From: a virus
UHGV virus genome: UHGV-0042151
Direction: 5' to 3' (one strand)
Length of the DNA: 35,904 nt
The position numbers and the translations under genes are program-made. The notes below the pieces were generated by a model. That model was not told the origin of the DNA, ran no database searches, and saw nothing but the letters and a program-made list of their open reading frames with translations. Below are positions 3,630-34,821 of this stretch, piece by piece (within the stretch, counting starts at the first letter, position 1; each line of letters opens with the position of its first letter).

Positions 3630-3644
3630 TTACCGTTGAGGTAA
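3630..3644. promoter_or_regulatory. palindromic site TTACC-N5-GGTAA (proximal operator of early-left promoter)
   Basis: TTACCGTTGAGGTAA; lies between -10-like element and ATG 3610. Confidence 0.5.
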
Positions 3645-3672
3645 TAATTATGCGTATATGGTTTGATGTCAA
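3644..3672 (-). promoter_or_regulatory. putative sigma70 promoter of early-left operon
   Basis: Minus-strand -35 TTGACA (3672..3667), 17-bp spacer, -10 AATTAT (3649..3644); flanked by two palindromic sites. Confidence 0.45.
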
Positions 3673-3691
3673 TAGATATGAGTTAAAAAAA

Positions 3692-3706
3692 TTACCCGTT
3701 AGGTAA
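3692..3706. promoter_or_regulatory. palindromic site TTACC-N5-GGTAA (distal operator of early-left promoter)
   Basis: TTACCCGTTAGGTAA; 20 bp upstream of the -35; centre 62 bp from site 3630..3644. Confidence 0.5.
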
Positions 3707-3786
3707 TCGAATAGGCAATAAAAAAGCCCCCCCAAAGCGGCGGTTCTTCTTTAAAAAAAAATTTTTTTTTTTTTTTTTTTTTTTTT

Positions 3787-3883
3787 NNNNNNNNNNNNNN
3801 NNNNNNNNNNNNNNNNNNNNNNNNNNNNNNNNNNNNNNNNNNNNNNNNNNNNNNNNNNNNNNNNNNNNNNNNNNNNNNNNNNN
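3787..3883. other. unresolved sequence (97 N) preceded by A9-T25 homopolymer tract
   Basis: Run of N at 3787-3883; track ORFs spanning it are artefacts (X residues). Confidence 0.95.
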
Positions 3884-3896
3884 GAAAAATATGGTT

Positions 3897-4481
3897 TTAT
3901 TGTTTGTTTTTTTCGTTATGGTTGATGACAAATTCAATGTAACTTTCGATCTTTGCTTTCTCGGTTTCGGGTAACAATGCGTAGCGCGAGCGATCATAGT
4001 TGATGGTCGCAGGGTCGTGCGGGTGAATCAGTAATTCATAGCCGTGACGCCCGAATGCGGATGCAACATTCTCCAGGGTGGAAATGGAAACGCTGACCTC
4101 ATTGTTTAACAGGCGGCTGATTGTCACCTGGGCTACGCCGGATGCGCGGTGAAGTTTTCCCTGTGTTGAAAGGTCGCGGCTTTCGCTCATCCAGCGTTCC
4201 AGGTTGTGAGCCGCCAGCTGGCCAATGTCGCTTGGGCCGACAGGCTGAAAACCTTCCTGAGAAAGCGAGCGATCGATATCAAGCCAGTTACGGGGTTTAT
4301 TGGCGGCAGCTTCAATTTTTCGTGCAACCTGGTCGCCGATAACCTTCTTGCCAAGAGCCCAGCGGTTTACCAGATTTGCCTGAGTTCCAAGTTTTTCAGC
4401 CATCCGCGTCTGAACACCATTGAATTCACGGTCGATCAAGTCGTTGAGATTTTGCCTGCGGACGTCCTGGATACTTTTCAT
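3897..4481 (-). CDS. phage repressor-like protein with two tandem XRE/CI-type HTH domains, no S24 peptidase domain
   Basis: 194 aa; HTH-like segments 'MAEKLGTQANLVNRWALGKK' and 'ASGVAQVTISRLLNNEVSVSISTLENVA'; divergent from Cro-like gene; no Ala-Gly/Ser-Lys autocleavage module seen. Confidence 0.65.
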   Translation of the reverse strand: MKSIQDVRRQNLNDLIDREFNGVQTRMAEKLGTQANLVNRWALGKKVIGDQVARKIEAAANKPRNWLDIDRSLSQEGFQPVGPSDIGQLAAHNLERWMSESRDLSTQGKLHRASGVAQVTISRLLNNEVSVSISTLENVASAFGRHGYELLIHPHDPATINYDRSRYALLPETEKAKIESYIEFVINHNEKNKQ

Positions 4482-4536
4482 TTTCTGGAAAATCGCCTCA
4501 TATATGAATCAGTAGATGATTCAATTTAAAGCAATA

Positions 4537-4551
4537 TTACCCAACAGGTAA
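4537..4551. promoter_or_regulatory. palindromic site TTACC-N5-GGTAA in repressor/cro intergenic region
   Basis: TTACCCAACAGGTAA; additional half-sites GGTAA (4563-4567) and TTACC (4586-4590) nearby. Confidence 0.5.
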
Positions 4552-4635
4552 ATGCACCCCACAGGTAACTATCCTTGATTTTTGTTACCTTATGGGTGAA
4601 TATTTATTATCTGAAATAAATATCAGGCAATAGCT

Positions 4636-4866
4636 ATGAGCGATAACGGACATTTCGATTTCAAAAAGCACTGGCTTGCACTTACTCCGGATGAGCGTGA
4701 AGCCTTCGCACAGGAAGCCGGAACGACGAGTCACTATATCCAGACTCACTTAACAGGTAAGCGCAAAATGCCAGGTAAGGTATTGATGAATGGGCTTTTT
4801 AAAGCCTGTAAAACAAGACAATGGCTGCGCTCAAAAGCAGAATTGGCATACTTCTTCTACTCATGA
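4636..4866 (+). CDS. Cro-like small HTH DNA-binding protein
   Basis: 76 aa, divergent to repressor; 'LTPDEREAFAQEAGTTSHYIQ' HTH-like; ends 24 nt before N-run. Confidence 0.5.
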   Translation: MSDNGHFDFKKHWLALTPDEREAFAQEAGTTSHYIQTHLTGKRKMPGKVLMNGLFKACKTRQWLRSKAELAYFFYS

Positions 4867-4889
4867 TATCCAGCCACAACCCTCTGTAN

Positions 4890-5024
4890 NNNNNNNNNNN
4901 NNNNNNNNNNNNNNNNNNNNNNNNNNNNNNNNNNNNNNNNNNNNNNNNNNNNNNNNNNNNNNNNNNNNNNNNNNNNNNNNNNNNNNNNNNNNNNNNNNNN
5001 NNNNNNNNNNNNNNNNNNNNNNNN
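4890..5024. other. unresolved sequence (135 N)
   Basis: Run of N at 4890-5024. Confidence 0.95.
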
Positions 5025-5046
5025 GGCGGTCTTTTCATATCTATTC

Positions 5047-5061
5047 GTACCTCAAAGGTAA
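5047..5061. promoter_or_regulatory. palindromic site, imperfect (GTACC-N5-GGTAA)
   Basis: GTACCTCAAAGGTAA, 9/10 half-site match; 80 nt upstream of ATG 5142. Confidence 0.35.
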
Positions 5062-5141
5062 TAAAAAACCAAATCTGGTTGATCTTTTTTTTGTGTCAGC
5101 ACAAAATGACCGTAATCCCAATACTAATAACAGGGCTTACC

Positions 5142-5342
5142 ATGGAAATCATTACACGTATTGATGCCGCAAAGCGCGGACTTAAACGCTACTACACCGG
5201 AAAAACATGTAAGCACGGACATGACAGTGAACGCTGGGTTTACAACGGACACTGTGTTGAGTGCACCATGGAATCAAACCGTCGTATCAGGGCAGAGATT
5301 AAGCAGATCATGATTAATTCCTCCCCACAACATTCAAGCTGA
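5142..5342 (+). CDS. small Cys/His-rich zinc-finger-like protein (putative regulator)
   Basis: 66 aa 'CKHGH...CVEC'; alternative in-frame ATG at 5106; upstream region partly lost in N-run. Confidence 0.45.
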   Translation: MEIITRIDAAKRGLKRYYTGKTCKHGHDSERWVYNGHCVECTMESNRRIRAEIKQIMINSSPQHSS

Positions 5343-5357
5343 TAGCGGAGATTAATC

Positions 5358-6155
5358 ATGAGCAGACATGCAACAGATTGGGCCTGGGAGACAGATCCAG
5401 GTAGCTCATCATTAAAGCTCATACTGCTCTCGATGGCTGACAGAGCCGATGAATATAACCTCTGCTACCCCAGCATAGAACGCCTCGTTAAAGACACTTG
5501 CCTGAATAAAAAAACCGTGCAGGCCGGGCTTATATCGCTCATGAAAATGGGGCTTATTTCAGATACCGGAGAGAGAAAGGGAGCGACAAAAAGAGTGCGG
5601 GTTTTCTCTCTTAATATAACCAAAAACGGGAACATTAAAGGCAACCGGGAGGGGGGCAATGAACCCGAAAACGGGAATATTCCCAAAAACGGGATGTTGA
5701 ATGATCCCAAAAACGGGATGTTGAATGATCCCAAAAACGGGATCCAGAACCAGTCATATAACCAGTCATTTAACCAAGAGAGGGAGAGCAGGACAAAAAG
5801 CGGGGATTCTGTGCCTCATGACCCCGGAGCAAACAACGCCGTGATGAATAACTTTGTTCCTCCTGGTGGGCCAGGGCAATTAGGCAAATTTGTCATGCAT
5901 GAACAATGGCAGCCATCAGATGACTTTCTTCGGAAAAGCTCATTGCAGGGGATCTACCTGGACAGTCTGCCAACGGCACAGGAACTTGCAGAGTTCAGAA
6001 TTTACTGGATGGCTGAGGGTAAGGCATACCATCAGGCACAGTGGGAGCAGAAGCTGGCAAGGCGGCTGCAGATTAGCAGACAGAAGCAATCAACATTACC
6101 TGATAACAACGTTCCGCACTGGAACAGCCCTGAAGCATGGGAGGATTTCTTGTGA
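5358..6155 (+). CDS. replication initiator (lambda O-like) with internal iteron array
   Basis: GGAG SD then ATG 5358; N-terminal winged-helix-like region; four iterons embedded mid-gene, as in lambda O. Confidence 0.6.
   Translation: MSRHATDWAWETDPGSSSLKLILLSMADRADEYNLCYPSIERLVKDTCLNKKTVQAGLISLMKMGLISDTGERKGATKRVRVFSLNITKNGNIKGNREGGNEPENGNIPKNGMLNDPKNGMLNDPKNGIQNQSYNQSFNQERESRTKSGDSVPHDPGANNAVMNNFVPPGGPGQLGKFVMHEQWQPSDDFLRKSSLQGIYLDSLPTAQELAEFRIYWMAEGKAYHQAQWEQKLARRLQISRQKQSTLPDNNVPHWNSPEAWEDFL
5664..5742. repeat. iteron array (candidate origin of replication)
   Basis: CCC(G/A)AAAACGGGA at 5664, 5682, 5706, 5730 (spacing 18/24/24), followed by AT-rich 'ACCAGTCAT' x2. Confidence 0.6.
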
Positions 6156-6937
6156 ACAACGTTTTTACCGCGATACAAAACCGTGACGGAGAAGCCCTTT
6201 CTCGCATGTCAGGTTATGAGCATCAGTACGTCAACAATGACAATGTGGTGAACATGTCAGCAGAGAGGCTTGTTGATGCCCTTTTTAAACAGCTGAAACA
6301 ACTGTTTCCGGCGGCAGTGGTAACCAACCTGAAGACGCCAGAGCAGGAAGTTGCTGCAAAACAGCAGTGGATTGCTGCGTTTGCCGAAGGGGGGATCCGA
6401 ACCCGTGAACAGGTTTCTGCTGGTATGCGCCACGCCCGCGCCAGTGAATCTCCGTTCTGGCCGTCTCCAGGGCAATTTATCAAGTGGTGCAAAGACAGCA
6501 AGATGGTTCTTGGCGTCACCATTGACGATGTGATGGCGGAGTTTCACCGGTACAGCAAGGAAAAAAGTTTATATCCTGGTGGTCCCGAAAGATTCCCGTG
6601 GCGACATCCGGTTATGTACTGGGTCGTATGTGATACCCGCCGTGCAATGTATCAGCGCCAGCTTAGCGAGATTGAGGTTGAGAAACACGCACGCAGGCTG
6701 CTCGATGATTGGGCGAAAAAGGTGGCTTCCGGACAGCAGATACCCGATCCGGTGATCAGCATACAGGCAAAGCCAGAGCCCATGAGTACGCCTCCGGACA
6801 CAGGGAGAGACGTTTACCATCCACCAGGGCGAAGTTTCGGGTGCATGCCTAACGCCGCCACCCTTGGGGGAATAACACCGGCGCAGTGGCTGATGGAGGA
6901 ATACAGGCGGGGAAAGGCGGCAGGATTTATCAAGTAA
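6152..6937 (+). CDS. replication protein P-like (helicase loader)
   Basis: 'EQVSAGMRHARASESPFWPSPGQFIKWCKD' resembles the lambda P motif '...PFLPSPGQFVAWC' as recalled; GTG 6152 with GGGAGGA SD overlaps O stop (in-frame ATG 6137 is an alternative). Confidence 0.65.
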   Translation: MNNVFTAIQNRDGEALSRMSGYEHQYVNNDNVVNMSAERLVDALFKQLKQLFPAAVVTNLKTPEQEVAAKQQWIAAFAEGGIRTREQVSAGMRHARASESPFWPSPGQFIKWCKDSKMVLGVTIDDVMAEFHRYSKEKSLYPGGPERFPWRHPVMYWVVCDTRRAMYQRQLSEIEVEKHARRLLDDWAKKVASGQQIPDPVISIQAKPEPMSTPPDTGRDVYHPPGRSFGCMPNAATLGGITPAQWLMEEYRRGKAAGFIK

Positions 6938-6974
6938 TACCAGCGCGATAGCGCATTTTTTTACGCCTCGACAA

Positions 6975-6989
6975 TTACCTGTTAGGTAA
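6975..6989. promoter_or_regulatory. palindromic site TTACC-N5-GGTAA (distal operator)
   Basis: TTACCTGTTAGGTAA; 20 bp upstream of -35 at 7009. Confidence 0.5.
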
Positions 6990-7008
6990 TAAAATATTCT
7001 AAAATCTA

Positions 7009-7037
7009 TTGATTTCGTGTCTTATGTGGTTTTTAAT
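7009..7037 (+). promoter_or_regulatory. putative sigma70 promoter inside the early-right region
   Basis: -35 TTGATT (7009-7014), 17-bp spacer, -10 TTTAAT (7032-7037). Confidence 0.45.
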
Positions 7038-7051
7038 TACCTCAGAGGTAA
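7037..7051. promoter_or_regulatory. palindromic site TTACC-N5-GGTAA (proximal operator, overlaps RBS)
   Basis: TTACCTCAGAGGTAA ends 3 nt before ATG 7055; centre 62 bp from site 6975..6989. Confidence 0.5.
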
Positions 7052-7054
7052 ATC

Positions 7055-7399
7055 ATGAGAAAACAGATACAGGCTCTTGGTCGACTCAAAACAGGTCAGA
7101 TGAACAAAACAGAATCTGCGTATTGCCAGCACCTTGAGCTGCGTAAACGTGCAGGAGAAATCGTCTGGTATCGATTTGAGGGTATCAAGCTGCGGTTAGC
7201 TGACAACACGTTCTATACGCCCGATTTTGCTGTGATGCTCGCCACCGGCGAGATGGAACTGCACGAAGTGAAAGGTTTCTGGACCGACGACGCCAGGGTG
7301 AAAACCAAAGTCGCCGCAGATCAGTATCCGTTCCGAATCATCGGGGTAACGGTTAAACCAAAGAAAGCAGGTGGTGGCTGGATCATCGAAGAGTTCTGA
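7055..7399 (+). CDS. putative PD-(D/E)XK nuclease (DUF1064-like small phage nuclease)
   Basis: 114 aa; 'YTPDF...ELHEVKG' fits a D...E-x-K nuclease core. Confidence 0.5.
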   Translation: MRKQIQALGRLKTGQMNKTESAYCQHLELRKRAGEIVWYRFEGIKLRLADNTFYTPDFAVMLATGEMELHEVKGFWTDDARVKTKVAADQYPFRIIGVTVKPKKAGGGWIIEEF

Positions 7400-7460
7400 A
7401 TCGACGATCTTTTTAGTTATCAATGTTATCAATAAGTTATGTGGATAAGCGAGGGTAAAG

Positions 7461-8024
7461 ATGGAAAGTAATATCAAATGGTTAGTTGCCGCCGGGCATG
7501 AGATGGCTTCTGAACTGAAAGCAGAATGTGGTGCCGTTGATATGCGCAGTGTGGCAAAGCTGATCAGCGATTTGGCAACGCAACTGGAAGTGCAACTGGT
7601 GCGTGCTAATGCGCTGGCCGAAGACCAGCAGAAAGCGATTGAGTCAATTAAGCAGGCTGATGCAGCTGTTAAGTTGGCACACGAGAAGTTTTCGGCGCTG
7701 GCAGCGGAGAATGCGGGGCTAAAGTCTGGCGCTATGGACGAAATCAAGGTTATCAACCGTGGAGGGCAGGCATATTGCGTAAAAGATGGAGTGCAAGTTA
7801 ATCCCATGTATGCAAGAGGGTGGAATGACTATCGCGCAAAGTCTCTGCAATCAGACACCCCAGCTACCGATGCTTTTCTGGCTGAAATTGAACGCAAAGC
7901 AATCCGCAAGTTCATTAACAGCATTGAACACATCCTGCGTGACAAGCTGTCTCCGTATGACACCGAAGAGATGCTTGAGGCTATGCGTATTTTTCTGGAA
8001 GAACAGAGTGGTGAGCAAAAATGA
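7461..8024 (+). CDS. hypothetical protein (187 aa)
   Basis: GAGGG SD then ATG 7461; coiled-coil-like Ala/Glu-rich middle. Confidence 0.5.
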   Translation: MESNIKWLVAAGHEMASELKAECGAVDMRSVAKLISDLATQLEVQLVRANALAEDQQKAIESIKQADAAVKLAHEKFSALAAENAGLKSGAMDEIKVINRGGQAYCVKDGVQVNPMYARGWNDYRAKSLQSDTPATDAFLAEIERKAIRKFINSIEHILRDKLSPYDTEEMLEAMRIFLEEQSGEQK

Positions 8025-8338
8025 CAATCACAAAACAACGGGTAGAAGAAATCATATCCCGCATTGAAATGTATGGACATGGTGCAGGATATACCGCTGA
8101 CGAGGTTTATGACCTAGCTGTACTGGCGCTGAATTTATCAAATATCGCAAACCTGAAGCGATACGAGCTTGATATGGGTGGTTGTGACTCGTGCGGTCAG
8201 GATTGTGGCGCTGACATGACTGAAGATTCTGATGGCAATTATGTCCTGTTTGATGACGTGGTTAAGTTGTTTGAGTTTGATACAACCACTCAGAAGTTAG
8301 AAGGCCCAGCAAAGGAGGCAACCAGTGAGCAAGATTGA
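8021..8338 (+). CDS. hypothetical protein (105 aa)
   Basis: ATGA overlap with upstream gene. Confidence 0.45.
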   Translation: MTITKQRVEEIISRIEMYGHGAGYTADEVYDLAVLALNLSNIANLKRYELDMGGCDSCGQDCGADMTEDSDGNYVLFDDVVKLFEFDTTTQKLEGPAKEATSEQD

Positions 8339-8900: not shown

Positions 8901-9249
8901 AGCAAAATTACTTCTTTTATCGCGTTCGACGGGGTACGAGAGGCTACCAATCAGCAATCACAAACGGGCGGTGATCGGCATGTTTGGTAGGGTGGTATTC
9001 GCATTTAACTATAAACCCACCGCGTCGCGGAACAGACGAGAGAAGGGGGACGCAGTGCGATGAAAAACCGTAAGGAAAAAATTCTGTTAGCTCGCAGAAA
9101 CGGTGTTGGGGTCTGGCGATGGTTGAGGATTAGTAACAGACGAGTGAGGTTGACGGGGTGTTGCGGGGTGATGGGGCACAGTTGTTGCAAAAAGCCCAGC
9201 GCGGCGCAAAACCGCTGGAAAAACCACCTGCGCGCTAAAGGAGACTGAT

Positions 9250-9459
9250 ATGGCTATTGCCGCAAGTTACACCATGCATCTCTACTGTGATTGTCGCCAG
9301 TGTACAAATGGTAAATATCAAACGCCAGACTTCGGTGAGTATATCGGTACGTCATGGGCTGGCTGTGCAAAAGAGGCGCGCAAGGACGGCTGGCGAATAA
9401 GCAAAGACAAAACACGTGCTTTTGCGCCAGGGCATAAAGTTTTAAGGATTAACAAATGA
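9250..9459 (+). CDS. small Cys-rich hypothetical protein (69 aa)
   Basis: AAAGGAGA SD then ATG 9250; 'CDCRQC'. Confidence 0.4.
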   Translation: MAIAASYTMHLYCDCRQCTNGKYQTPDFGEYIGTSWAGCAKEARKDGWRISKDKTRAFAPGHKVLRINK

Positions 9460-9968: not shown

Positions 9969-9969
9969 G

Positions 9970-10578: not shown

Positions 10579-11142
10579 ATGACCACTATAACCGATAAGA
10601 AACAGTATCCAGGCGAGCAATATCTTAATGAGCTGATCACCAACATAGAGTTTGCTGCAAGGGCACCAGTTGAAGTCGTGAGAGCAATGGCAGCAGAGCT
10701 ACAGAAGCGGCGCGAAGCTGATAGTGCAGAACCTGTAAGTAATCATGAAGAGTTGCCGCTTGATTATCTCCAAGGTCAAAAAGATGGTCTTGAATGGGCT
10801 GCGCAGCTTGCAGAAGCAAATCACCCACAAACTGGCGACTGGCTTTACGATGACCCGCTGGAGCTGGCTAAAGCTATCAGAAAAGGTCCTGACATGCCTG
10901 AATTCGATGGACCAACTCCGGTAACTACGGATGGTTGGATAAGCTGTAGTGATCTAATGCCGGAAGACACCAAAATGTTACTGGCATTTAGTCAAGGTGA
11001 AATCGTGGCAGCATATTGGAACTGGGTTGTAAATCCAATTGATTACAAAAAATATAGAGCTTTCACGTATTTATCAGGAAATATCTTGGATGACGTAACT
11101 CACTGGATGCCGCTACCAGAGCCGCCGCAGGAGGTGAAGTGA
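10579..11142 (+). CDS. 'MTTIT' paralog 3 fused to DUF551-like C-terminal domain
   Basis: AAAGGAGAG SD then ATG 10579; C-terminus '[23 protein letters not shown]...[10 protein letters not shown]' resembles DUF551. Confidence 0.55.
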
Positions 11143-11483
11143 TGGACTATTCACAGTTAAGTGATTTTGAAATTAACAGAATGGTAGGAGACATAATTTT
11201 TAAAGGCCTTTGGGCATGTAAACCGGAAACATCAGGGAATAACACCAACAAATGGTATTACGGAAATACTGATACAACTTTTGAGCCATTAAACCATTTA
11301 CCTGACTACTGCAATGATCCTAGCGCCTCATGGCCGATTATTGAGAAACACAGGATTTCTATCTTAGACCAGTTAACTGAATGGTGTGTTGATGCAAAAG
11401 GCGTAAGACCAATATTTGATACCAGACCTCTCCGCGCCGCCATGATTGTATTTCTCATGATGCAGGAAAATCAGAATGGCTAA
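11142..11483 (+). CDS. hypothetical protein (113 aa)
   Basis: TGATG overlap with upstream stop. Confidence 0.45.
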
Positions 11484-11814
11484 ATCAGCAGCAGAGCGCA
11501 AAGCCGCTCAGAGAGCCAGACAAGCTGCATCTGGTGTGCGTAAGCTGGAAATTGTGCTTGATGCTCAGGAAATTGAAATGCTGGAGCGTAACTGCGCCGC
11601 CCGGCGCCCTGGTCGCGATCCCTATGAAATGGCCGAGTACATCGCGCTGCTGATCCGCCAGGATGATGCACGCGTGCGCGGGCGTATAAAATCGATCAGC
11701 AGAAAACGTTGCGGTAAGTGCGGCGAGAGAGTTCCAGTTAATTCATGCCCGTGTAATGGTGACTCGCAATGCTGGGTGACTAAAGGCTGGCATGAAACGA
11801 AATTAATAGTGTGA
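11476..11814 (+). CDS. small basic protein with C-terminal Cys cluster (candidate regulator, last early gene)
   Basis: AGGAAAA SD then ATG 11476; '[23 protein letters not shown]'; directly followed by intrinsic terminator and terminase genes. Confidence 0.45.
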
Positions 11815-11822
11815 CATGTCAC
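11811..11822. promoter_or_regulatory. 12-bp perfect palindrome GTGACATGTCAC (copy 1 of 3)
   Basis: Overlaps stop codon of 11476..11814 gene; 40 bp upstream of terminator. Confidence 0.35.
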
Positions 11823-11863: not shown

Positions 11864-11889
11864 GCCGCCAACTATGGCGGCTTTATTTT
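11864..11889 (+). terminator. rho-independent terminator at early/late boundary
   Basis: GCCGCC-aactat-GGCGGC hairpin followed by TTTATTTT. Confidence 0.55.
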
Positions 11890-11900
11890 GCATGGTATTA

Positions 11901-11915
11901 TTACCACAACGGTAA
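11901..11915. promoter_or_regulatory. palindromic site TTACC-N5-GGTAA upstream of terminase genes
   Basis: TTACCACAACGGTAA immediately after -10-like TATTAT (11895-11900), 18 nt before ATG 11933. Confidence 0.5.
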
Positions 11916-11932
11916 CAATTACCACGGTGGTT

Positions 11933-12529
11933 ATGATGCCTGCTGAACCTAAAACCTATAAACGCAAATCAACGCAATTTAAGCCGCTCACAGCAATGCA
12001 GGAGGCTTATTGCCAGTCATACATCAAAACGCCTGAAAACCAGACTCAGGCAGCGATTAACGCAGGATTCTCCCCAAATACAGCGGCAGTTAAAGCCAGT
12101 GTCATGATGCGCGATGAACGCATTCAAAAACGGATTGCCGAGTTGATGGAGGAGCGCAACAAACGAATGCGCGTCAGTGCTGATTACGTTCTCATGCGCT
12201 TGGTGGAGATCGACCAGATGGACGTGATCGATATCCTCAACGACGATGGGAGCCTTAAACCAATCCGTGAGTGGCCGAAAATCTGGCGCACTACGCTTAG
12301 TGGCTTTGATCTGTCATCGACCATCATGAACATGAACGAGGATTCGATAGAGACAATCCTCAAAAAAATTAAATGGCCTGACAAGGTGAAGAACCTAGAA
12401 CTGATTGGTAAGCATGTTGATGTCAACGCGTTCAAAGAACGTCTGGATGTTAATGTGAATGTGACAATTGCTGATCGCATAGCAGCAGCCAGGAAGCGAC
12501 TCAAAGAACGTCAGGATGGTAATCAGTGA
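11933..12529 (+). CDS. terminase small subunit
   Basis: 'LTAMQEAYCQSYIKTPENQTQAAINAGFS' matches the conserved terminase-small N-terminal pattern; start set at ATG 11933 (track start 11855 is TTG). Confidence 0.7.
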   Translation: MMPAEPKTYKRKSTQFKPLTAMQEAYCQSYIKTPENQTQAAINAGFSPNTAAVKASVMMRDERIQKRIAELMEERNKRMRVSADYVLMRLVEIDQMDVIDILNDDGSLKPIREWPKIWRTTLSGFDLSSTIMNMNEDSIETILKKIKWPDKVKNLELIGKHVDVNAFKERLDVNVNVTIADRIAAARKRLKERQDGNQ

Positions 12530-14709: not shown

Positions 14710-14786
14710 TGGCGTGGCATGCAGGATTCGAACCTGCGACCAACCGCTTAGAAGGCGGTTGCTCTGTCCAACTGAGCTAATGCCAC
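14710..14786 (-). tRNA. tRNA-Arg (anticodon UCU)
   Basis: Hand-folded cloverleaf: acceptor GTGGCAT/ATGCCAC, D-arm GCTC-AGTTGGACA-GAGC, anticodon arm ACCGC-CTTCTAA-GCGGT, T-arm GCAGG-TTCGAAT-CCTGC, 3' GCCA; similar to but distinct from E. coli argU as recalled. Confidence 0.9.
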
Positions 14787-15108
14787 AACGCTGAGAGCAC
14801 TTAGCCTGTTAAGGCGCCACACTTTGTCGCGGCTCCATAAATGCTCTCATCGTTGTACCCTCGTCTCTTCCGAGGCGTCACACCGAATCGCCGGGATGGT
14901 GAATCCCCGTGCGCGGAATAAAACCGCTCGACTTGCACATTCCGGCTACCTGGTTCGTTTGCCCGAGCAAGGGAGGGTGCCCCTTAAACGTATCCAGACC
15001 GCTATCGGCGCATGTGCCATACGCCGTACTGCTCAAAATAAAAGCTCACTCCACCTGTTCAATTTAACGACAAGCCAGTCAGGTTAGTAACCGGAATGAA
15101 CTCTTTGG

Positions 15109-15123
15109 TTACCTAAAGGGTAA
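15109..15123. promoter_or_regulatory. palindromic site TTACC-N5-GGTAA upstream of portal operon
   Basis: TTACCTAAAGGGTAA, 90 nt upstream of ATG 15214. Confidence 0.45.
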
Positions 15124-15213
15124 TAATTAGCGCGTTAAATGTCAACTTTCTACGATAAATAAATCATATGTGGTTAAATTGGTAATAATTTAATTGCGTA
15201 CGGAGTCATTGAT

Positions 15214-19605: not shown

Positions 19606-19941
19606 ATGTCAGGTGAGAAACCAAGATACCGCGTTCTGCGCCTCTCTCATATCCATAACACTCTGTGGCCGGAGGGGGCAGAAATCGAATACGAAGGTGA
19701 GCCTGGTAGCGCACTGGAACCTGTTAACGATGCAGCCAGACAGGCAAAAGCAAAAGTTGCAGGAAAGGTGTCAATGGCAGCAACCAGCACCAAAATCATC
19801 AACGATGTGTCAGATGATGGTGAACTGGATAAGCTCCGTGAAGAGTACGAATTGCTCTTTAACGAGAAGCCACACCATAACGCCAAAGCCGAAACGCTCC
19901 GCGAGAAGATCGCAGATAAGCGTAAAGAACTGGGCGTGTAA
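19606..19941 (+). CDS. hypothetical structural-module protein (111 aa)
   Basis: AAGGTGA SD then ATG 19606. Confidence 0.45.
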   Translation: MSGEKPRYRVLRLSHIHNTLWPEGAEIEYEGEPGSALEPVNDAARQAKAKVAGKVSMAATSTKIINDVSDDGELDKLREEYELLFNEKPHHNAKAETLREKIADKRKELGV

Positions 19942-24400: not shown

Positions 24401-26913
24401 TGCCAGTCGTACCAACAGTATCCGGACGTCAGGTTGAGAGCCGTGGAGTTCAGTCAGCAGGCTTGCAGACGTTTTCTCAGCCAGGTATTGGTGATGCTTT
24501 TGTTCGGGCAGGGGCAGAGGCAATTGATGTTTTGGGGCAGGCAAAACAGCGTGCCAATATTGCCTTGGCTCAGGAGGCATCTCTTAACCTCAGTCAGATA
24601 AGCAGTGATTTGCTGAATAATCCTGAAACAGGATTGCTTAACCTGAAAGGGAAAAATGCTATTGGAAAAGGCCATGAGTATACGCAGCAGTTTGATGCTC
24701 AGGTCGAACAATTGGCTATGTCGCTGCCGGATGAACAGGCTCGTAATGCTTTCATGCAGCAGGCGCAGCAGCAGCGCATTCAGTTCACTACGCAGGCCGG
24801 GCGGCACGAGATAGGGCAAATAAATGCCTACGAAGAAGGCCAGTTTCAGGCTACGCTGCTGAACAATGGTAAAAATGCCGCAGCATTGTATGGCGACAAC
24901 GCCGCATACGTATTGGCTAATAAGCAAACTTTCCAGCAAATTGAGGATTACGGCATTGCACATGGCTGGAGTGACGAGCAAATCCAGGCCAAGAAAATCG
25001 AGTTTAAAGAAGCAACAGCAAAAGCAACTGCTCAAAATGCTATTGGAGCAAACTATCTTCAGGTAAGATGGCAAAACGGCGAGTTAAGCGATACTGCTGC
25101 TGGATCTCGCCGTGCTGTAGCAGATAGTGGCTCTTCCGATCGTACCCGCGGTATACGCAACAATAACCCCGGCAATCTTGAATACAGCAAAACTAATCCG
25201 TGGGTTGGGCAGACTGGTGATGATGGTCGCTTTGCCAAATTCGAAACCCCTGAACACGGTATTCGTGCATTAGGGCGGAACCTGATGTCGTATCAGCGGC
25301 AGGGTATTGATACCGTCAGCGAGATAATTAATCGCTGGGCACCGCCTACTGATAAAAATGACACTATGTCGTATATCAAAGCAGTGTGCGAACAACTTGG
25401 CGTTTCTGCTGATGAGCCTCTCGATGCATCAAATCCTGATACCCTGAAGGCGCTTTGTGCAGCCATTATCCATCATGAAAACGGTAGCCAGCCATACAGT
25501 GATCAGCAGTTAACTGCAGGTGTTAGTGCTGCGCTGGGGCTTTCTCAGCTACCGACAAAAAATAAACGTTATACCGGTGTAGCCTGGTTCGATGCTTTAA
25601 GTGAATCAGATCAGGCCAGCGTGTTGCGACAGACTGATGCACTAGCCAGACAACAGCAGGCTGAATATAAAACGATGCTCGACAGCCGGGTTCGCGATGC
25701 GACGGCTGCGTATATGCGTGGCGTTGAATTTCCTAACCCACCTGGTGAGGATGATTTTATTGCAGCTTATGGAGTCAGAGAAGGAAACCTGCGATATACC
25801 GAGTTTAAGAATACGCAGATCGCCGGACAGTATATAGGCTCTTTCCGCAACATGCCGACAAGCAGCATTACAGCATATGTTGAGCAATTACGCCCGGATA
25901 CTGGTGATACAGGGGAGGGGTATGCGGCACGCGCAGCTCTTTATGACAACGTTGTTTCGGCTGCAAATCAGGTGATAAAGCAGCGGCAGTCGGATCCTGT
26001 GCAGTTCTCTCTTGCCTCCGGACAGGCAAAGCCTATCGACATGAGCAATAAGGATAACTTTGGACAGAGCGTTGCCTTGCGTGCCGCTCAGGTCAGTGAC
26101 CTTGCTAAGTCATATGGCACTCCACTGACGTTCTTTTCCAAAGACGAGGCCAATCAGATCGGTGTTTTCTTTCGTGATGCGCCAGTTTCCCAACAGGCAG
26201 CATATCTCGATACCATCAGGCAGAGCACTGGTGGTGGGCAGGTGTATATGTCAGCACTACAGCAGATCAGTGCCAACGCTCCATCTGCTGCCGTTGCCGG
26301 GATACTGATGGATAAGCCTGGTGGTATTTTGGCAGAAAAAAACTGGTTTAATCCTGATGTTTCCGTGTCTCCTGAAACCGCAGCGCAGACAATTCTTGCT
26401 GGTGCGGCGGCTCGTAAAGGTACTGATGACGCGAAAGGTATTCCGATGCCTAAAGATGCTGATCTCCGCATTGAGTTTTCTGACATGGTGAAGGATGCAT
26501 TTGCTGGTGATGCTCAGGGGGCATCAATGGCATACGAGATCGCAAAGGACTATTACGCTGGTGTGATGGCGAAAAAAGGCGTGGTATCAGGCGAAATTGA
26601 CAATGATATCTGGAAACAGGCTGTTAACGTAGCTACAGGTGGCGTGCATGACTATAACGGAATGGGGAATGTTCTTTTGCCGTGGGGAATGTCTGCAGAG
26701 CAATTCGATAAGCAGGTTAATCAGGCTTGGAATGAACAAGTTGTCGGCACAGGGATAAAAACACCGCTTGGTCAGTATGGTTTGCAAAGTTACGGCGATA
26801 GTCAGTACCTGGTGAAACTTGGTACTGGTTATCTGCTAAAAGATGATGGTTCTCCCGTTGTTCTTGATCTGACACAGAAGCGTCAGAGATTCTCCGGAGA
26901 TATTCCGCAATGA
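24400..26913 (+). CDS. internal virion (ejection) protein C-like, 837 aa, possible cell-wall-hydrolase region
   Basis: GGAGG SD then ATG 24400; segment 'GIRNNNPGNLEY...HHENG' looks enzyme-like, unverified. Confidence 0.55.
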   Translation: MPVVPTVSGRQVESRGVQSAGLQTFSQPGIGDAFVRAGAEAIDVLGQAKQRANIALAQEASLNLSQISSDLLNNPETGLLNLKGKNAIGKGHEYTQQFDAQVEQLAMSLPDEQARNAFMQQAQQQRIQFTTQAGRHEIGQINAYEEGQFQATLLNNGKNAAALYGDNAAYVLANKQTFQQIEDYGIAHGWSDEQIQAKKIEFKEATAKATAQNAIGANYLQVRWQNGELSDTAAGSRRAVADSGSSDRTRGIRNNNPGNLEYSKTNPWVGQTGDDGRFAKFETPEHGIRALGRNLMSYQRQGIDTVSEIINRWAPPTDKNDTMSYIKAVCEQLGVSADEPLDASNPDTLKALCAAIIHHENGSQPYSDQQLTAGVSAALGLSQLPTKNKRYTGVAWFDALSESDQASVLRQTDALARQQQAEYKTMLDSRVRDATAAYMRGVEFPNPPGEDDFIAAYGVREGNLRYTEFKNTQIAGQYIGSFRNMPTSSITAYVEQLRPDTGDTGEGYAARAALYDNVVSAANQVIKQRQSDPVQFSLASGQAKPIDMSNKDNFGQSVALRAAQVSDLAKSYGTPLTFFSKDEANQIGVFFRDAPVSQQAAYLDTIRQSTGGGQVYMSALQQISANAPSAAVAGILMDKPGGILAEKNWFNPDVSVSPETAAQTILAGAAARKGTDDAKGIPMPKDADLRIEFSDMVKDAFAGDAQGASMAYEIAKDYYAGVMAKKGVVSGEIDNDIWKQAVNVATGGVHDYNGMGNVLLPWGMSAEQFDKQVNQAWNEQVVGTGIKTPLGQYGLQSYGDSQYLVKLGTGYLLKDDGSPVVLDLTQKRQRFSGDIPQ

Positions 26914-28712: not shown

Positions 28713-28717
28713 ATTAA

Positions 28718-31192: not shown

Positions 31193-31201
31193 GGAACAAC
31201 A

Positions 31202-31615
31202 ATGAAGGAATTATTGCTGTTATCGGTATTTTTGATATCCGCTTGCTCGACATCCTATGATGTTTATGACGGTGTTGATAAGGCATATTGCGACAAAGTT
31301 AAAATGGATTTTTCTCTTGCCAAGACGGCGAAGGATAGTTGTATTGATCACTACGTCAAGACTTATACCAAGCCAGCCTCATCGGCATCTGATATTGCTG
31401 AAGGTGCTGTGTTTGAGTGTAACAAGGTGATATCCATCGCAGCGAGTTCTTCATACGATGCTGCTGTATGTGCAATGGCTGAAAGAAACGGCATGTCAGT
31501 GCAAAAAATTAATAGCATGATAAGCAGTAATGACGAAGCCAAAATAAGAACTGATATCAGCTCGGTGAAAAAAGATGCCATGAACAGAGTTGTAAAATAT
31601 CAGTCATCTTTATAA
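31202..31615 (+). CDS. lipoprotein (137 aa), candidate superinfection-exclusion or moron product
   Basis: Signal peptide plus lipobox 'LISAC' then Cys; own terminator. Confidence 0.55.
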   Translation: MKELLLLSVFLISACSTSYDVYDGVDKAYCDKVKMDFSLAKTAKDSCIDHYVKTYTKPASSASDIAEGAVFECNKVISIAASSSYDAAVCAMAERNGMSVQKINSMISSNDEAKIRTDISSVKKDAMNRVVKYQSSL

Positions 31616-31618
31616 GTC

Positions 31619-31630
31619 GTGACATGTCAC
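31619..31630. promoter_or_regulatory. 12-bp perfect palindrome GTGACATGTCAC (copy 3 of 3)
   Basis: Immediately 5' of terminator hairpin. Confidence 0.35.
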
Positions 31631-31631
31631 A

Positions 31632-31655
31632 GGCCGCTTTCGCGGCCTTGTTTTT
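31632..31655 (+). terminator. rho-independent terminator
   Basis: GGCCGC-tttc-GCGGCC followed by TTGTTTTT. Confidence 0.6.
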
Positions 31656-31815
31656 AACGAATGCCACCGCCACCCGGGCGGGAATCCGCAGAACGCCCAC
31701 CGCAGCGGGAGCCGTCAGCAGCAGTGTCGCTGTCGTGCTGACAACGACCGGCAAAGGCCTGAGTTGAAGCTACCAGAGACAACAAAACGAACAGTGCAGC
31801 AAATGCTTTTTTCAT
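31654..31815 (-). CDS. small secreted peptide (53 aa precursor)
   Basis: 'MKKAFAALFVLLSLVASTQAFA' signal peptide then 31-aa Gly/Arg-rich tail with 2 Cys; upstream TTGACG-17-ATAGAT promoter-like. Confidence 0.4.
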   Translation of the reverse strand: MKKAFAALFVLLSLVASTQAFAGRCQHDSDTAADGSRCGGRSADSRPGGGGIR

Positions 31816-31886
31816 TGTGAAATTTCCATCTATAAGCCACCTCAATGTGGCGTCAATGAGTGTAGCACTGACTTTTGTTTCGCCCA

Positions 31887-31909
31887 CAAAAAAGCCCGCA
31901 GCGCGGGCT
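31887..31909 (-). terminator. rho-independent terminator (minus strand)
   Basis: AGCCCGC-gcu-GCGGGCU then U6 on minus strand, starting at the stop codon of the 31908 gene. Confidence 0.5.
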
Positions 31910-32348
31910 ATTCTTCTTCATCATTAAAAAGCGGATTGTTGTTTCCATCTGATGAAAGGAAAGGTATGTGTTCTCTTGAAAATCCAACAATGACAATTTC
32001 ATTATCATTTTTTGCATAATGAATGCATTCATTAGAATGCCTTCCGCCAGGGTTGAAATTTAAGTTAATGGTATAATTCTTAAATGTGTTTGGATACCAT
32101 GTTGGCCCACAATGATAATGCCAATAATTCTCTTGCTCATAATTGTCTGAGCCGGGAATTTTATCATGGTTATCATCAACCCACGAGGGCTTGTTTTTTC
32201 CAACAAGCGCCCTTCCATTGGCAACATCCTCTAAAAAACTTTGTATGATTTTTATTTCATCATCAGTAAGGAAAGGTCCGTCTACAGCGAAAGGGGTGTT
32301 GCTTTCCCCATGTAGAAAACTATTAGATATTCTAATGTTAAACTTCAA
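31908..32348 (-). CDS. hypothetical AT-rich protein (146 aa), second gene of two-gene operon
   Basis: TTG start 32348 with AGGAG SD 6 nt upstream (the track's ATG 32489 start has no SD and overlaps the small ORF); no recognisable domain. Confidence 0.4.
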   Translation of the reverse strand: MKFNIRISNSFLHGESNTPFAVDGPFLTDDEIKIIQSFLEDVANGRALVGKNKPSWVDDNHDKIPGSDNYEQENYWHYHCGPTWYPNTFKNYTINLNFNPGGRHSNECIHYAKNDNEIVIVGFSREHIPFLSSDGNNNPLFNDEEE

Positions 32349-32368
32349 GGAAAACTCCTGATGTGCTT

Positions 32369-32536
32369 CTATTTGGAGCGAAATGCCGCCTTGAAGTCGC
32401 TGAAAGATGTTCCTGTCTGGTAAACCATATCCTTGTCGCGCTCTTTGCTTGCGCGGCCAAGCATAACTTTTCCAATGACATCCCAGCATTGCTTGGCTTG
32501 TTCATTGTGCTGAGTACGATTTTTCAACGCTGTCAT
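32369..32536 (-). CDS. small hypothetical protein (55 aa), first gene of two-gene operon
   Basis: AGGAGG SD 6 nt before ATG 32536; 'MTALKNRTQHNEQAKQCWDVIGKVMLGRASKERDKDMVYQTGTSFSDFKAAFRSK'. Confidence 0.45.
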   Translation of the reverse strand: MTALKNRTQHNEQAKQCWDVIGKVMLGRASKERDKDMVYQTGTSFSDFKAAFRSK

Positions 32537-32548
32537 ATCGCGCCTCCT

Positions 32549-32563
32549 TTACCTTTAAGGTAA
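32549..32563. promoter_or_regulatory. palindromic site TTACC-N5-GGTAA at promoter of two-gene operon
   Basis: Minus-strand TTGCAG-17-TACTAT promoter-like element abuts the site; site abuts SD. Confidence 0.5.
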
Positions 32564-32611
32564 TAGTACGCTATTCACCCACAGTCTGCAATCTGTACAG
32601 AATTATTTAAA

Positions 32612-32627
32612 GGCACATCCCTGTGCC
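32612..32627 (-). terminator. possible terminator after Bro-N gene
   Basis: GGCACA-GGGA-TGTGCC hairpin with A/U-rich 3' flank on minus strand. Confidence 0.3.
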
Positions 32628-32635
32628 GCCGCCCG

Positions 32636-33322
32636 TCAGAAGAACCCAGCCTTGTCGTTGATGTACTCCGCGTGGGTCTGGATATCACGCAGGCATTTGC
32701 TCACACCAACAATGTAGCAGAACATGGTGGTCAGCTCCGCCGCCGCGCCCGATACGTCGTGCCCGTCTTCCTGTAACTGGTTCAGCAGATTCATCAGCAG
32801 TGAGTTCTCCGTCAGGCCGAGAACACCAGACGGAGAATGAATCAGGCTGCGGTAGCCGGGCTTCAGTGGGGCACTGTAGGTTTTGTTCTCTATCTTCATT
32901 GCCTGCATCACTGCTGATGCTGTGGCGTTGGCTACCTGGTCGGCAACTATCTTTATGCGTTCTTCCTGCGGGAGCGAGTTTTTAATGTAACTTCCGGTGC
33001 GGCGGATCTGAGGAAGAACCTCACCTGTAACCCATTTACGAAAGCGGTAGGGGATAGTGCCTGGTGTCACTGCGTCGCGGCAGCGGAGGATCAGTGTGTA
33101 GAGGCCTGACTCGTTGATAATATTGGTTTCACCTTGACGGCCTAAGTTAAATTTAGCCCTTTCATCATCATCAAGAGATTTTATTGACATAGTGGGGTTT
33201 GTCAGTTGAAGAGCTTTAATAACGTCTTTGGCAACAAACCAAGGATTTCCATCAATAACAATGGCTCGAATGGTGGCTTCTGATTCAAAATGAAAAACAG
33301 ATGGGGTTACGTTAGCAGTCAT
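32636..33322 (-). CDS. Bro-N domain antirepressor-like protein
   Basis: N-terminus 'IRAIVIDGNPWFVAKDVIKALQL...GLYTLILR' fits Bro-N; C-terminal domain homologous to the 34473..34730 product; AGGTGA SD then ATG 33322. Confidence 0.65.
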   Translation of the reverse strand: MTANVTPSVFHFESEATIRAIVIDGNPWFVAKDVIKALQLTNPTMSIKSLDDDERAKFNLGRQGETNIINESGLYTLILRCRDAVTPGTIPYRFRKWVTGEVLPQIRRTGSYIKNSLPQEERIKIVADQVANATASAVMQAMKIENKTYSAPLKPGYRSLIHSPSGVLGLTENSLLMNLLNQLQEDGHDVSGAAAELTTMFCYIVGVSKCLRDIQTHAEYINDKAGFF

Positions 33323-33481
33323 AGTGATCACCTTTTAGTATGGTTAATCACCACCTGAGGTGCAAATCTCGTTGGTGGTGAGACGTACAGGGTTTGCACT
33401 ACCGGCTAAAAGGACCCGGCGCACCTTTCGGTGCCCCTGCACGTCCCACCATAATTCTGGCATGACTGTGCTATACGCATA

Positions 33482-33503
33482 AAAAAACCACGTCTGGCGT
33501 GGT
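33482..33503 (-). terminator. intrinsic terminator inside Bro-N upstream region (possible sRNA or attenuator 3' end)
   Basis: Minus strand ACCACG-CCAGA-CGTGGT followed by U7. Confidence 0.4.
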
Positions 33504-33593
33504 ATGCGCCTTTTAGTAATCCGGGGTGCAAATCCCGGCACTGGATTTTGCCAGTGCCCGATTACTATGGCACAAGAGGAGTGCGATGTAAAT

Positions 33594-33608
33594 TTACCGA
33601 AAAGGTAA
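33594..33608. promoter_or_regulatory. palindromic site TTACC-N5-GGTAA
   Basis: TTACCGAAAAGGTAA; about 90 bp upstream (minus sense) of the 33482 terminator. Confidence 0.45.
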
Positions 33609-33686
33609 TGATAAGCGCGAAAAAACATTAAAATCAACCGTATTTGGTTGATTGCGTTTAACGCTTGATCACCTGAAAGCAAGATA

Positions 33687-33701
33687 TTACCTTTAAGGTA
33701 A
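33687..33701. promoter_or_regulatory. palindromic site TTACC-N5-GGTAA upstream of 33722 gene
   Basis: TTACCTTTAAGGTAA, 20 nt before ATG 33722, just 5' of GAGGA SD. Confidence 0.5.
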
Positions 33702-33721
33702 TGTTATTGTGAGGAAAAGCA

Positions 33722-34450
33722 ATGGAAGTTTTCTGGATAGTTGTTGGTGTGGTTGCGGTGATTATTTACGTTATCAACCAGAACAAGACTAAGATCTCTG
33801 ATCGTACGGTCGTTAATCAGAACAAAACGATAAAGACCGAAGATGGGGAGATAACGATTAATCGTACACAGGTGATAGAGCACACATCTACTCAGTTTCA
33901 AAAAACTGGAGGTAACGCGCCTGATATTTCCGTACCTCCTGCTTATGATAGTGCGGTAATCCAGACATATTATAAACAGCAGGAGTTAGCAAAAGAGAGG
34001 CAACTGATTCAGCCAAAGCCGTTTACAGCTGAGCTTCCACCTGGAGTGTCAACGCGTCCGGCATATCATGGAAGATTCCCTGGTGATGACATATCGTCTC
34101 AGTCATTTAAAAAAGCACCTCAGGCAGTATCAGAGCCAGCAAGAATATCTTCTGTATCGCCGCCAAAAGAAGAATCAGCTAACAGAGTTTCAAGCGGTAG
34201 CAAGCAGTGCTTGCGATGCAGAATAAACCTTCCATATGAAAAATTCAGGAAATCGTCAAAAAATCCGGATGGATTGACTAAGTGGTGTGCAAGGTGTCTC
34301 GATGGCCCAAAGAATACACGTCATATGAAGTGGTGCCCAATTTGTAATGTCCGCAGAAAACGAACCAGCTTTTACCCTAATAATCAAAATGCGGACGGCT
34401 TAATGGCATGGTGCAAAACGTGCTGGGACGAGCACAAAGCGAAACGATAG
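33722..34450 (+). CDS. membrane-anchored protein with duplicated C-terminal zinc-ribbon (CxxC...WCxxC) modules
   Basis: N-terminal TM helix 'FWIVVGVVAVIIYVI'; 'CLRCRIN...WCARCLD' and 'WCPICNV...WCKTCWD'. Confidence 0.5.
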   Translation: MEVFWIVVGVVAVIIYVINQNKTKISDRTVVNQNKTIKTEDGEITINRTQVIEHTSTQFQKTGGNAPDISVPPAYDSAVIQTYYKQQELAKERQLIQPKPFTAELPPGVSTRPAYHGRFPGDDISSQSFKKAPQAVSEPARISSVSPPKEESANRVSSGSKQCLRCRINLPYEKFRKSSKNPDGLTKWCARCLDGPKNTRHMKWCPICNVRRKRTSFYPNNQNADGLMAWCKTCWDEHKAKR

Positions 34451-34474
34451 GCCGCTCTTGCGGCCTTTAAATTT
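34450..34474. terminator. bidirectional intrinsic terminator between convergent genes
   Basis: GGCCGC-tctt-GCGGCC followed by TTTAAATTT. Confidence 0.5.
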
Positions 34475-34730
34475 ACCGGGTTTGTTTTCGTAATTGTTCG
34501 GCACAATAGTCGAGATGTGTTTGCAGATCCTGCATAGACATCTGTGAGCTGGTGACGTAGTTAATCAGTGCAGTCAGTTCGGCAAGTGGGCCATCGACAT
34601 TAAATCCATCCTTATCGAGATCCCGGAGTAATTTCATCAAGTGCGATCCCTCCACCAGTGACCTGACGCCTCCCGGCGTGTGAATCCTTTCGGTAAATCC
34701 GTCTTCCAGTGGATAGTGATACTGCTGCAT
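34473..34730 (-). CDS. small antirepressor-like protein (85 aa), SOS-regulated
   Basis: GGAGAA SD then ATG 34730; homologous to C-terminal domain of Bro-N protein ('SLVEGSHLMKLLRDLDKDGFNVDGPLAELT' vs 'GLTENSLLMNLLNQLQEDGHDVSGAAAELT'); LexA box 22 nt upstream. Confidence 0.55.
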   Translation of the reverse strand: MQQYHYPLEDGFTERIHTPGGVRSLVEGSHLMKLLRDLDKDGFNVDGPLAELTALINYVTSSQMSMQDLQTHLDYCAEQLRKQTR

Positions 34731-34751
34731 CTTATCTTCTCCATGCAATAA

Positions 34752-34767
34752 CTGTATATTTATACAG
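34752..34767. promoter_or_regulatory. LexA (SOS) box
   Basis: CTGTATATTTATACAG = CTGT-N8-ACAG with AT-rich core; extended AACTGTATATTTATACAGTA matches 18/20 of the consensus TACTGTATATATATACAGTA. Confidence 0.6.
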
Positions 34768-34806
34768 TAGCAAATAATTTGTTTGCTATCCAGCACGTTT
34801 TGCAAA

Positions 34807-34821
34807 TTACCTGAAAGGTAA
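34807..34821. promoter_or_regulatory. palindromic site TTACC-N5-GGTAA between antirepressor and tailspike genes
   Basis: TTACCTGAAAGGTAA. Confidence 0.45.

Follow-up and report, generated by a model that had tools for sequence, protein, structure and literature searches.

Dispersed palindromes in the epsilon15-like virus genome UHGV-0042151 are probable operators of the prophage repressor

Which protein reads a short palindrome that recurs throughout a small viral genome? The question is raised by UHGV-0042151, a virus genome of 35,904 nucleotides (the window, by which we mean the whole stretch of DNA analysed), in which TTACC-N5-GGTAA is scattered from the early-left genes to the tail-fibre region. 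The first-pass annotation of this DNA had read the repeat as a real regulon of promoter-associated sites served by one phage-encoded factor, and had named three candidate binders. The evidence given below supports such a regulon, and we conclude that the sites are very probably operators of the prophage repressor Rep, the first candidate named. Rep and the second candidate are listed here; the third is a Cys-rich, gp49-like protein encoded at 11476..11814.

3897..4481, minus strand: Rep, prophage repressor of 194 amino acids, with an N-terminal helix-turn-helix (HTH) and a C-terminal HTH_3-like domain
4636..4866, plus strand: Cro-like HTH protein of 76 amino acids, matching phrog_35; possible second binder at the rep/cro operators

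The repeat had been described as far rarer by chance than in the window, and the counts agree: there are 11 exact copies of TTACC-N5-GGTAA against 0.02 expected (100 dinucleotide shuffles), and 14 copies with at most one mismatch against 0.46 expected (dinucleotide-preserving shuffles). In an unbiased count TTACC-N5 ranks first among all 5-Nx-5 palindromes of the window. A motif scan returned each of the 11 exact positions listed previously and the imperfect copy at 5047 (9/10 matches); all twelve listed copies are real, but two further 9/10 copies, at 4585 and 11919, had been missed. A weaker copy (8/10, GCACC-N5-GGTAA) lies at 4554, 17 bp from 4537. A position weight matrix was trained on the 60 exact sites of six genomes (the window, epsilon15, SPC32H, phiv142-3, Tyrion and BUCT711); scanning the window with it gave no sites beyond those counted, and 4554 falls below its threshold. 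According to this matrix the sites are symmetric, the middle base of the spacer is nearly always A or T, and A/T flanks widen the site to ATTACC-N5-GGTAAT.

All copies were judged to lie outside genes, which bears out the statement that every copy is intergenic. A greedy map of open reading frames (ORFs), deliberately over-inclusive, spans 92.6% of the window. The 7.4% that it leaves free still contains 11 of the 14 sites, and the remaining three are touched solely by over-extended or spurious ORFs. Starts set by homology clear the sites (11936 for terS, 34730 for ant), and ORF 33344..33628 has no family match and overlies two Rfam RNAs. Runs of N mask 3787-3883 (97 bases) and 4889-5024 (136 bases), i.e. 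the terminator regions after the repressor and Cro-like genes. ORFs 4790..5164 and 4821..5342, both of which cross N runs, were discarded as artefacts. Judging by the unmasked phiV10 sequence, no additional site lies under either run. A third early-left operator within 3787-3883, where epsilon15 has three, was considered and rejected because unmasked phiV10 has just two.

Its sequence identifies the window as a temperate podovirus or prophage of E. coli that belongs to the epsilon15-like group (genus Uetakevirus). Most of its genes were assigned through homology mapping, and the nearest relatives are PAS61, phiv142-3, phiV10, ZX5 and HEMP4, with 95-97% identity across shared segments. A search of related phages found the site at syntenic places in five relatives, epsilon15, SPC32H, phiv142-3, Enterobacter phage Tyrion and Klebsiella phage BUCT711, and in each of them it outranks all other bipartite palindromes. 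In the epsilon15 record (AY150271.2 / NC_004775.2) seven protein_bind features carry the label 'repressor / lysogeny', and these are identical to its seven strict copies of ATTACC-N5-GGTAAT. One of them precedes terS, one gp3 and one gp43; a further one separates gp19, the homologue of ant, from the tail fibre, and the other three lie between gp37 and the repressor gene. The window has counterparts of the terS, gp3, tail fibre/ant, gp37-rep and post-replication sites. Since the epsilon15 record labels the same sites and the motif is syntenic across relatives, the first-pass annotation had rediscovered the operator set of the genus and had overrated its novelty; the system is an ordinary, already known one, namely the repressor operators of epsilon15-like prophages. 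A full-text literature lookup of the motif and of six operator sequences returned nothing relevant. What may be undescribed is the strict 62-bp clamp discussed below, the single operator specificity over four host genera, and Rep control of an isrK/C4/Bro-N unit.

By sequence placement, operators stand on or beside the promoters of essentially every transcription unit of the window: early-left, rep/cro, post-replication, terS, portal/head, tail fibre/ant and three accessory units. The earlier description of their spread over early-left, immunity, replication-distal, packaging, portal and antirepressor regions was right, and this spread is conserved in the six genomes. The operators are as follows.

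3629..3645, minus strand: early-left (PL) proximal operator, exact copy (3630); its first two bases are also the last two of the -10 hexamer AATTAT
3691..3707, minus strand: PL distal operator, exact copy (3692), upstream of the -35 and exactly 62 bp from the proximal one
4536..4552, no strand assigned: rep-side operator of the divergent rep/cro region, exact copy (4537)
4553..4569, no strand assigned: weak middle rep/cro operator (8/10, right half-site intact), equivalent to epsilon15 site 33358
4584..4600, plus strand: rep/cro operator before the Cro-like gene (9/10), over the -35 and spacer of TTGTTA-17-TATTAT
5046..5062, plus strand: operator between the Cro-like gene and the gp40-like gene (5142), 9/10 (5047)
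6974..6990, plus strand: distal operator of the second 62-bp module, exact copy (6975), with the replication gene on one side and the DUF1064 gene on the other
7036..7052, plus strand: proximal operator of the second 62-bp module, exact copy (7037)
11900..11916, plus strand: first terS operator, exact copy (11901), ahead of the terS start at 11936
11918..11934, plus strand: second terS operator (9/10), 18 bp from the first
15108..15124, plus strand: solo operator before the gp3-like/portal operon (15214), exact copy (15109)
32548..32564, minus strand: operator of the YafO-like module, exact copy (32549), 13 nt before the small gene 32536..32372
33593..33609, minus strand: operator of the isrK-like/C4-like/Bro-N antirepressor operon, exact copy (33594), abutting the -35 of TTTACA-17-CATAGT
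33686..33702, plus strand: operator of the inserted Cys-rich 242-amino-acid gene, exact copy (33687), 20 nt before that gene (33722..34450)
34806..34822, no strand assigned: operator between the divergent ant (start 34730) and tail-fibre (start 34926) genes, exact copy (34807)

Several of these positions are also marked by their surroundings. TTGTTA-17-TATTAT is the rightward promoter of the Cro-like gene, and the copy at 4585 that covers it is 48 bp from 4537. The mismatch of operator 5047 (CGTACC) is kept in phiV10, phiv142-3 and Tyrion. A -10-like TTTAAT ends in the first two bases of operator 7036..7052, and an ATG (7055) follows 2 nt beyond the operator. The first terS operator lies downstream of a terminator (11864-11881) and abuts an extended -10-like TGgTATTAT; the terS pair as such is common to epsilon15, phiv142-3 and Tyrion. 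Operator 34806..34822 is syntenic with the epsilon15 'repressor' feature 19895-19911.

The solo operators are accompanied by a second element, CATATrTGGTT-N5-GGTAATA(r)AAT, at 15165-15190 and 34851-34876, which is nearly invariant in the six genomes. It lies 62 bp (gp3/portal) and 50 bp (tail fibre) downstream of the solo operators, and holds one operator half-site together with a -10-like TAATAAT or TAGAAT. It may be an activator-dependent late promoter, for which the 11476..11814 protein is a candidate activator, or a weak proximal half-operator. Outside the window, 5 of 5 complete relatives have an operator with one mismatch (GGTATA half-site) directly upstream of the integrase gene (at 26882, 28568, 26960, 39129 and 12620), and because it is kept in all five, int may also be Rep-controlled.

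What points to Rep as the binder? Firstly, the match of Rep to the SPC32H repressor (PDB 5D50, E 1.7e-41) spans the whole protein. Structures have been solved for the SPC32H repressor/antirepressor pair (PDB 5D50, 5D4Z), 5D4Z being the C-terminal domain of the repressor alone. Pfam reported HTH families only for Rep, and no Peptidase_S24. Rep shares 99.5% identity with the phiV10 and ZX5 repressors, and overexpression of the ZX5 repressor altered the lytic-lysogenic decision (PMC9782041). Over the genus the identity drops to 41-44% (41-42% overall against epsilon15/SPC32H). The comparison with SPC32H gives 54% identity for the N-terminal domain and 38% for the C-terminal domain, and an NLVNRW stretch of Rep is invariant across the genus. 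A better-conserved N-terminal domain with this invariant stretch is what would fit an invariant operator half-site.

Secondly, a more distant phage connects the half-site with this domain. PseuP_224, found as a tblastn match, is an unrelated lambdoid siphovirus of Pseudomonas; in its cI protein an S24 domain is joined to a Rep-like N-terminal HTH. The phage genome contains TTACC-N4-GGTAA three times exactly and once with one mismatch, always flanking cI and nowhere else, at 10906-10947 and 11768-11822, i.e. in its OL and OR regions. PseuP_224 has no homologue of the Cro-like, Cys-rich gp49-like or Ant proteins. The TTACC half-site is thus tied to the Rep N-terminal domain, because that domain is the sole component that PseuP_224 shares. 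Another distant tblastn match, Mcat9, carries TTAC(C/T)-N5-(A/G)GTAA-like repeats next to a gene whose product has another helix, and is too weak to count. Further searches stayed close to the window: the search for homologues of the N-terminal domain gave near-identical fragments only, and every locus recovered by the four-protein search for related loci had a domain identical at 100%. Neither the motif nor the Rep helix nor the Cro-like helix varies within the genus, so that covariation cannot separate Rep from the Cro-like protein. Homology, the epsilon15 labels and PseuP_224 nevertheless make the tandem-HTH repressor the best-supported of the three candidates named by the first-pass annotation; of the other two, the Cro-like protein holds up as a possible second binder at the rep/cro sites, while the Cys-rich protein is unlikely.

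If Rep is the binder, how would it act? Two pairs of operators in the window are exactly 62 bp apart (3630/3692 and 6975/7037), and every genome examined repeats this spacing in both of its pairs, except BUCT711, where one pair is 63 bp apart. In an alignment of 12 modules from the six genomes the invariant parts are both operators, a -35 element TATTGA and the base before the proximal operator. The order of the module is distal operator, 16 nt, TATTGAca, a 17-nt spacer and a -10 hexamer whose final AT doubles as the first two bases of the proximal operator. A promoter scan placed the early-left promoter (TTGACA-17-AATTAT) on the minus strand with its end at 3644. Because the -10 hexamer ends in the first two bases of the proximal PL operator, the latter covers about -8 to +9; the centre of the distal operator is approximately six helical turns upstream of the proximal one, beyond the -35. 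The spacings are also kept in IMG/VR, where at least 300 matches encode a relative of the Rep N-terminal domain and 80 were kept, all 100% identical to the domain of the window. In the 78 distinct loci the half-sites are fixed and the 5-nt spacers vary freely; of the pairs, 146 of 149 are separated by 62 bp, and the 48-bp distance holds in 78 of 78.

SPC32H Rep binds DNA as a tetramer, with DNA-binding pairs drawn from different dimers (PMC9638917), and as a tetramer has two such pairs, one Rep tetramer could hold both operators. In the mechanism that we propose, pairs of Rep N-terminal HTHs would read the two TTACC half-sites of the 17-bp ATTACC-WWWWW-GGTAAT. Rep on the proximal operator would cover the start site, and a tetramer on both operators would shut the promoter. 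In the lysogen Rep would silence the whole prophage directly, with no regulatory cascade required. Members of the genus from Salmonella, E. coli, Enterobacter and Klebsiella share one operator specificity, while the Rep C-terminal domain diverges. If true, a single operator specificity together with a diverging antirepressor-binding domain would mean that it is the induction partner, rather than operator recognition, that defines the immunity groups. The joint proposal, i.e. that the 62-bp pair is a dedicated promoter clamp for tetrameric Rep, that Rep directly controls every Uetakevirus promoter and that the induction partner sets the immunity groups, is speculative, and we regard it as rather unlikely to hold in all its parts. 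As to the details, one tetramer may bind two operators on the same face of the DNA, and the direct control may include late and accessory units.

Induction would depend on two further features, located between the inserted Cys-rich gene and the tail-fibre gene.

34476..34730, minus strand: small antirepressor Ant of 85 amino acids, 88% identical to the annotated Ant of SPC32H
34750..34769, minus strand: near-consensus LexA box TACTGTATAAATATACAGTT, directly upstream of the ant ribosome-binding site

Kim & Ryu 2013 and Kim et al. 2016 reportedly found that SPC32H Rep remains uncleaved and that a LexA-controlled Ant strips it from DNA. By homology, DNA damage would free the ant box of LexA, Ant would be made and Rep would be displaced from its operators; this would be induction without self-cleavage, in keeping with a Rep that has no S24 domain. 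We take the C-terminal domain of Rep to be the binding target of Ant. The two partners differ in this respect: identity to SPC32H is 88% for Ant but just 38% for the Rep C-terminal domain, which is hard to explain unless about 30 invariant residues of that domain carry the contacts.

Three points weigh against the Rep explanation. Consensus promoter matches in these regions are no commoner than in shuffles, so the promoter assignments rest on conserved position rather than on statistics. The solo operators (gp3, tail fibre) are about 50-60 bp upstream of a conserved -10-like element, which is atypical for occlusion. Finally, the HTH of the Cro-like protein is conserved as strongly as the helix of Rep.

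The last point leads to the rival that survives best, namely that the Cro-like protein is the main or sole binder of the palindrome and acts as a global repressor of the lytic phase. Its HTH, AGTTSHYIQTHLTG, is invariant genus-wide, as is the motif, and the phrog_35 family that it matches is described as 'transcriptional repressor'. In lambda-type switches Cro and CI use common operators. However, PseuP_224 keeps the TTACC half-site by a cI of the Rep N-terminal-domain type without having a Cro-like homologue, the depositors of epsilon15 attribute the sites to the repressor, and silenced late and accessory promoters suit a lysogenic repressor better than a lytic one. We therefore consider it improbable that the Cro-like protein is the main or sole binder; that it shares the rep/cro sites with Rep is possible.

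According to a second rival, the sites are activator boxes through which the Cys-rich 11476..11814 regulator turns on the late operons. This protein matches phrog_536 ('transcriptional regulator'), its gene ends the early-right operon directly before terS, and sites do precede the terS, portal and tail-fibre genes. But sites are also present at the early-left and rep/cro promoters, and the best-defined modules overlap the -10/+1 region, which is the position of a repressor. PseuP_224 has the half-site and no homologue of 11476..11814, and the second element beside the solo operators is a better candidate for a late-activator site. An activator role of the palindromes is thus very improbable.

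Still less probable is that the palindromes work as RNA or DNA hairpins, such as terminators, processing sites or pause sites. It is true that every one of them folds into a hairpin of 7-10 bp (-5.5 to -9.2 kcal/mol, z-scores -1.6 to -4.2), but any palindrome would fold so. A terminator scan does not flag the sites, and several are upstream of the transcription start. Neither the 60 exact sites nor the 78 IMG/VR loci show covariation in the TTACC/GGTAA stem, and the loop varies; fixed half-sites, variable spacers and the lack of compensatory change argue for a protein site rather than a hairpin. Least probable of all is a repeat that arose by chance or serves as the target of a methylase or restriction-modification system. 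Although the bipartite motif resembles Type I targets and relatives encode methyltransferases, 11 copies are found against 0.02 expected, all copies are syntenic, lie in the approximately 7% of non-coding DNA with spacings fixed at 62 and 48 bp, and a modification target would be spread through coding DNA. Hairpins or terminators, methylation targets and chance were all rejected on the counts, the non-coding placement, the folding and the IMG/VR data.

With Rep as the most probable binder, the accessory units that carry its operators deserve a closer description. The first comprises two RNAs and a protein.

33481..33557, minus strand: isrK-like small RNA (Rfam RF01394, 67.4 bits)
33371..33456, minus strand: C4 antisense RNA (Rfam RF01695, 77.8 bits)
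32636..33331, minus strand: Bro-N domain antirepressor-like protein, downstream of the isrK-like and C4 RNAs

Operator 33594 is 263 nt from the Bro-N gene, and the gap is filled by the isrK-like RNA followed by the C4 RNA. The isrK 5' end is 37 nt from the operator edge, an offset that is identical in phiv142-3 and Tyrion, and the promoter TTTACA-17-CATAGT predicts a start exactly at the 5' end of the Rfam isrK match. Both phiv142-3 and Tyrion have isrK, C4 and Bro-N in this order; epsilon15 lacks the unit. The second unit, headed by operator 32549, begins with a small gene (32372..32536, minus strand, phrog_8607) that overlaps the start of the next gene (the region is 31908-32536, minus strand). 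This second gene is a YafO-family toxin in the annotation of TL-2011b, and phrog_5954 matches its residues 49-189; the two genes may form a toxin-antitoxin pair under operator 32549. The third unit is the inserted gene 33722..34450 (242 amino acids, phrog_6762), whose C-terminal Cys motifs are like those of endonuclease VII, HNH and Lar proteins. It is located between the Bro-N unit and ant, a place where it is absent in phiv142-3, phiV10 and epsilon15.

It is instructive to compare these operators with known repressor systems. The closest are epsilon15 and SPC32H/SPN1S, which have the identical 17-bp palindrome at the early-left pair, rep/cro, the post-replication pair, terS, gp3 and tail fibre/ant. 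In SPC32H the architecture of Rep, the small Ant with its LexA box and the 62-bp pairs are all as in the window. The differences are in the host, which is E. coli and not Salmonella, and in the overall Rep identity given above. The rep/cro cluster is spaced by 17+31 (48) bp with weaker inner sites in the window and by 17+30 bp in epsilon15 (its pair 33341/33358 accounts for the 17), and the window has additional operators at accessory units missing from epsilon15, namely the isrK/C4/Bro-N operon, the YafO-like module and the Cys-rich insert.

Phage P1 provides a more remote parallel. The operators of its C1 repressor are scattered over the genome and include Op51 of the immI (c4-icd-ant) operon. 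As in P1, a single repressor would act directly at many scattered promoters and antirepressors are in use, and the succession of operator 33594, C4 RNA and antirepressor gene is like that of immI, apart from the isrK-like RNA that precedes C4 in the window. P1 operators, however, are asymmetric 17-mers and C1 is an unrelated protein, while the site of the window is symmetric and predicted to be read by an HTH pair. None of the matches of Rep (HTH families of the XRE type, the SPC32H Rep structure) named C1, although no direct comparison with P1 C1 was made. The stoperators bound by gp71 of mycobacteriophage L5 and cluster A are asymmetric and orientation-dependent, and halt elongating polymerase inside transcription units. 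They resemble the sites of the window in that a dozen or more repressor sites are spread across early and late regions, all in non-coding gaps; but the window sites are symmetric and overlap or flank promoter elements. A contrast with L5 stoperators is also drawn in PMC1934351. Because the site is symmetric and the protein different, the system is not a member of the P1 or the L5 type. By analogy, it would be closer in its working to the dispersed C1 operators of P1 than to the L5 stoperators. Lambda CI at OL and OR is likewise an HTH repressor with palindromic operators of 16-17 bp and several cooperating sites per promoter, but both lambda CI and the cI of PseuP_224 have operators only beside the repressor gene and are induced by S24 self-cleavage. 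PseuP_224 shares the TTACC half-site and the fold of the N-terminal domain, with a spacer of 4 nt where the window has 5 nt.

Two features of the window that are apart from the operators were noted. A tRNA-Arg gene (anticodon tct) is found at 14710-14786 on the minus strand, between the terminase and portal operons, and is also present in phiv142-3 and SPC32H. An adenine-methylase homologue at 118-394 (minus strand) aligns to phiv142-3 in two frames (394..197 and 195..118), and this split alignment suggests a frameshift.

As to what the finding means, no new kind of regulation is revealed and the practical value is modest. The motif is a dependable marker of promoters and transcription units in phiV10/epsilon15-like prophages, which are very common in E. 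coli; phiV10 itself is listed among the phages for E. coli O157 detection. The operators predict that accessory genes, namely the YafO-like module, the Bro-N antirepressor and the Cys-rich insert, would be silent in the lysogen, and that cross-repression would occur among phages of four host genera.

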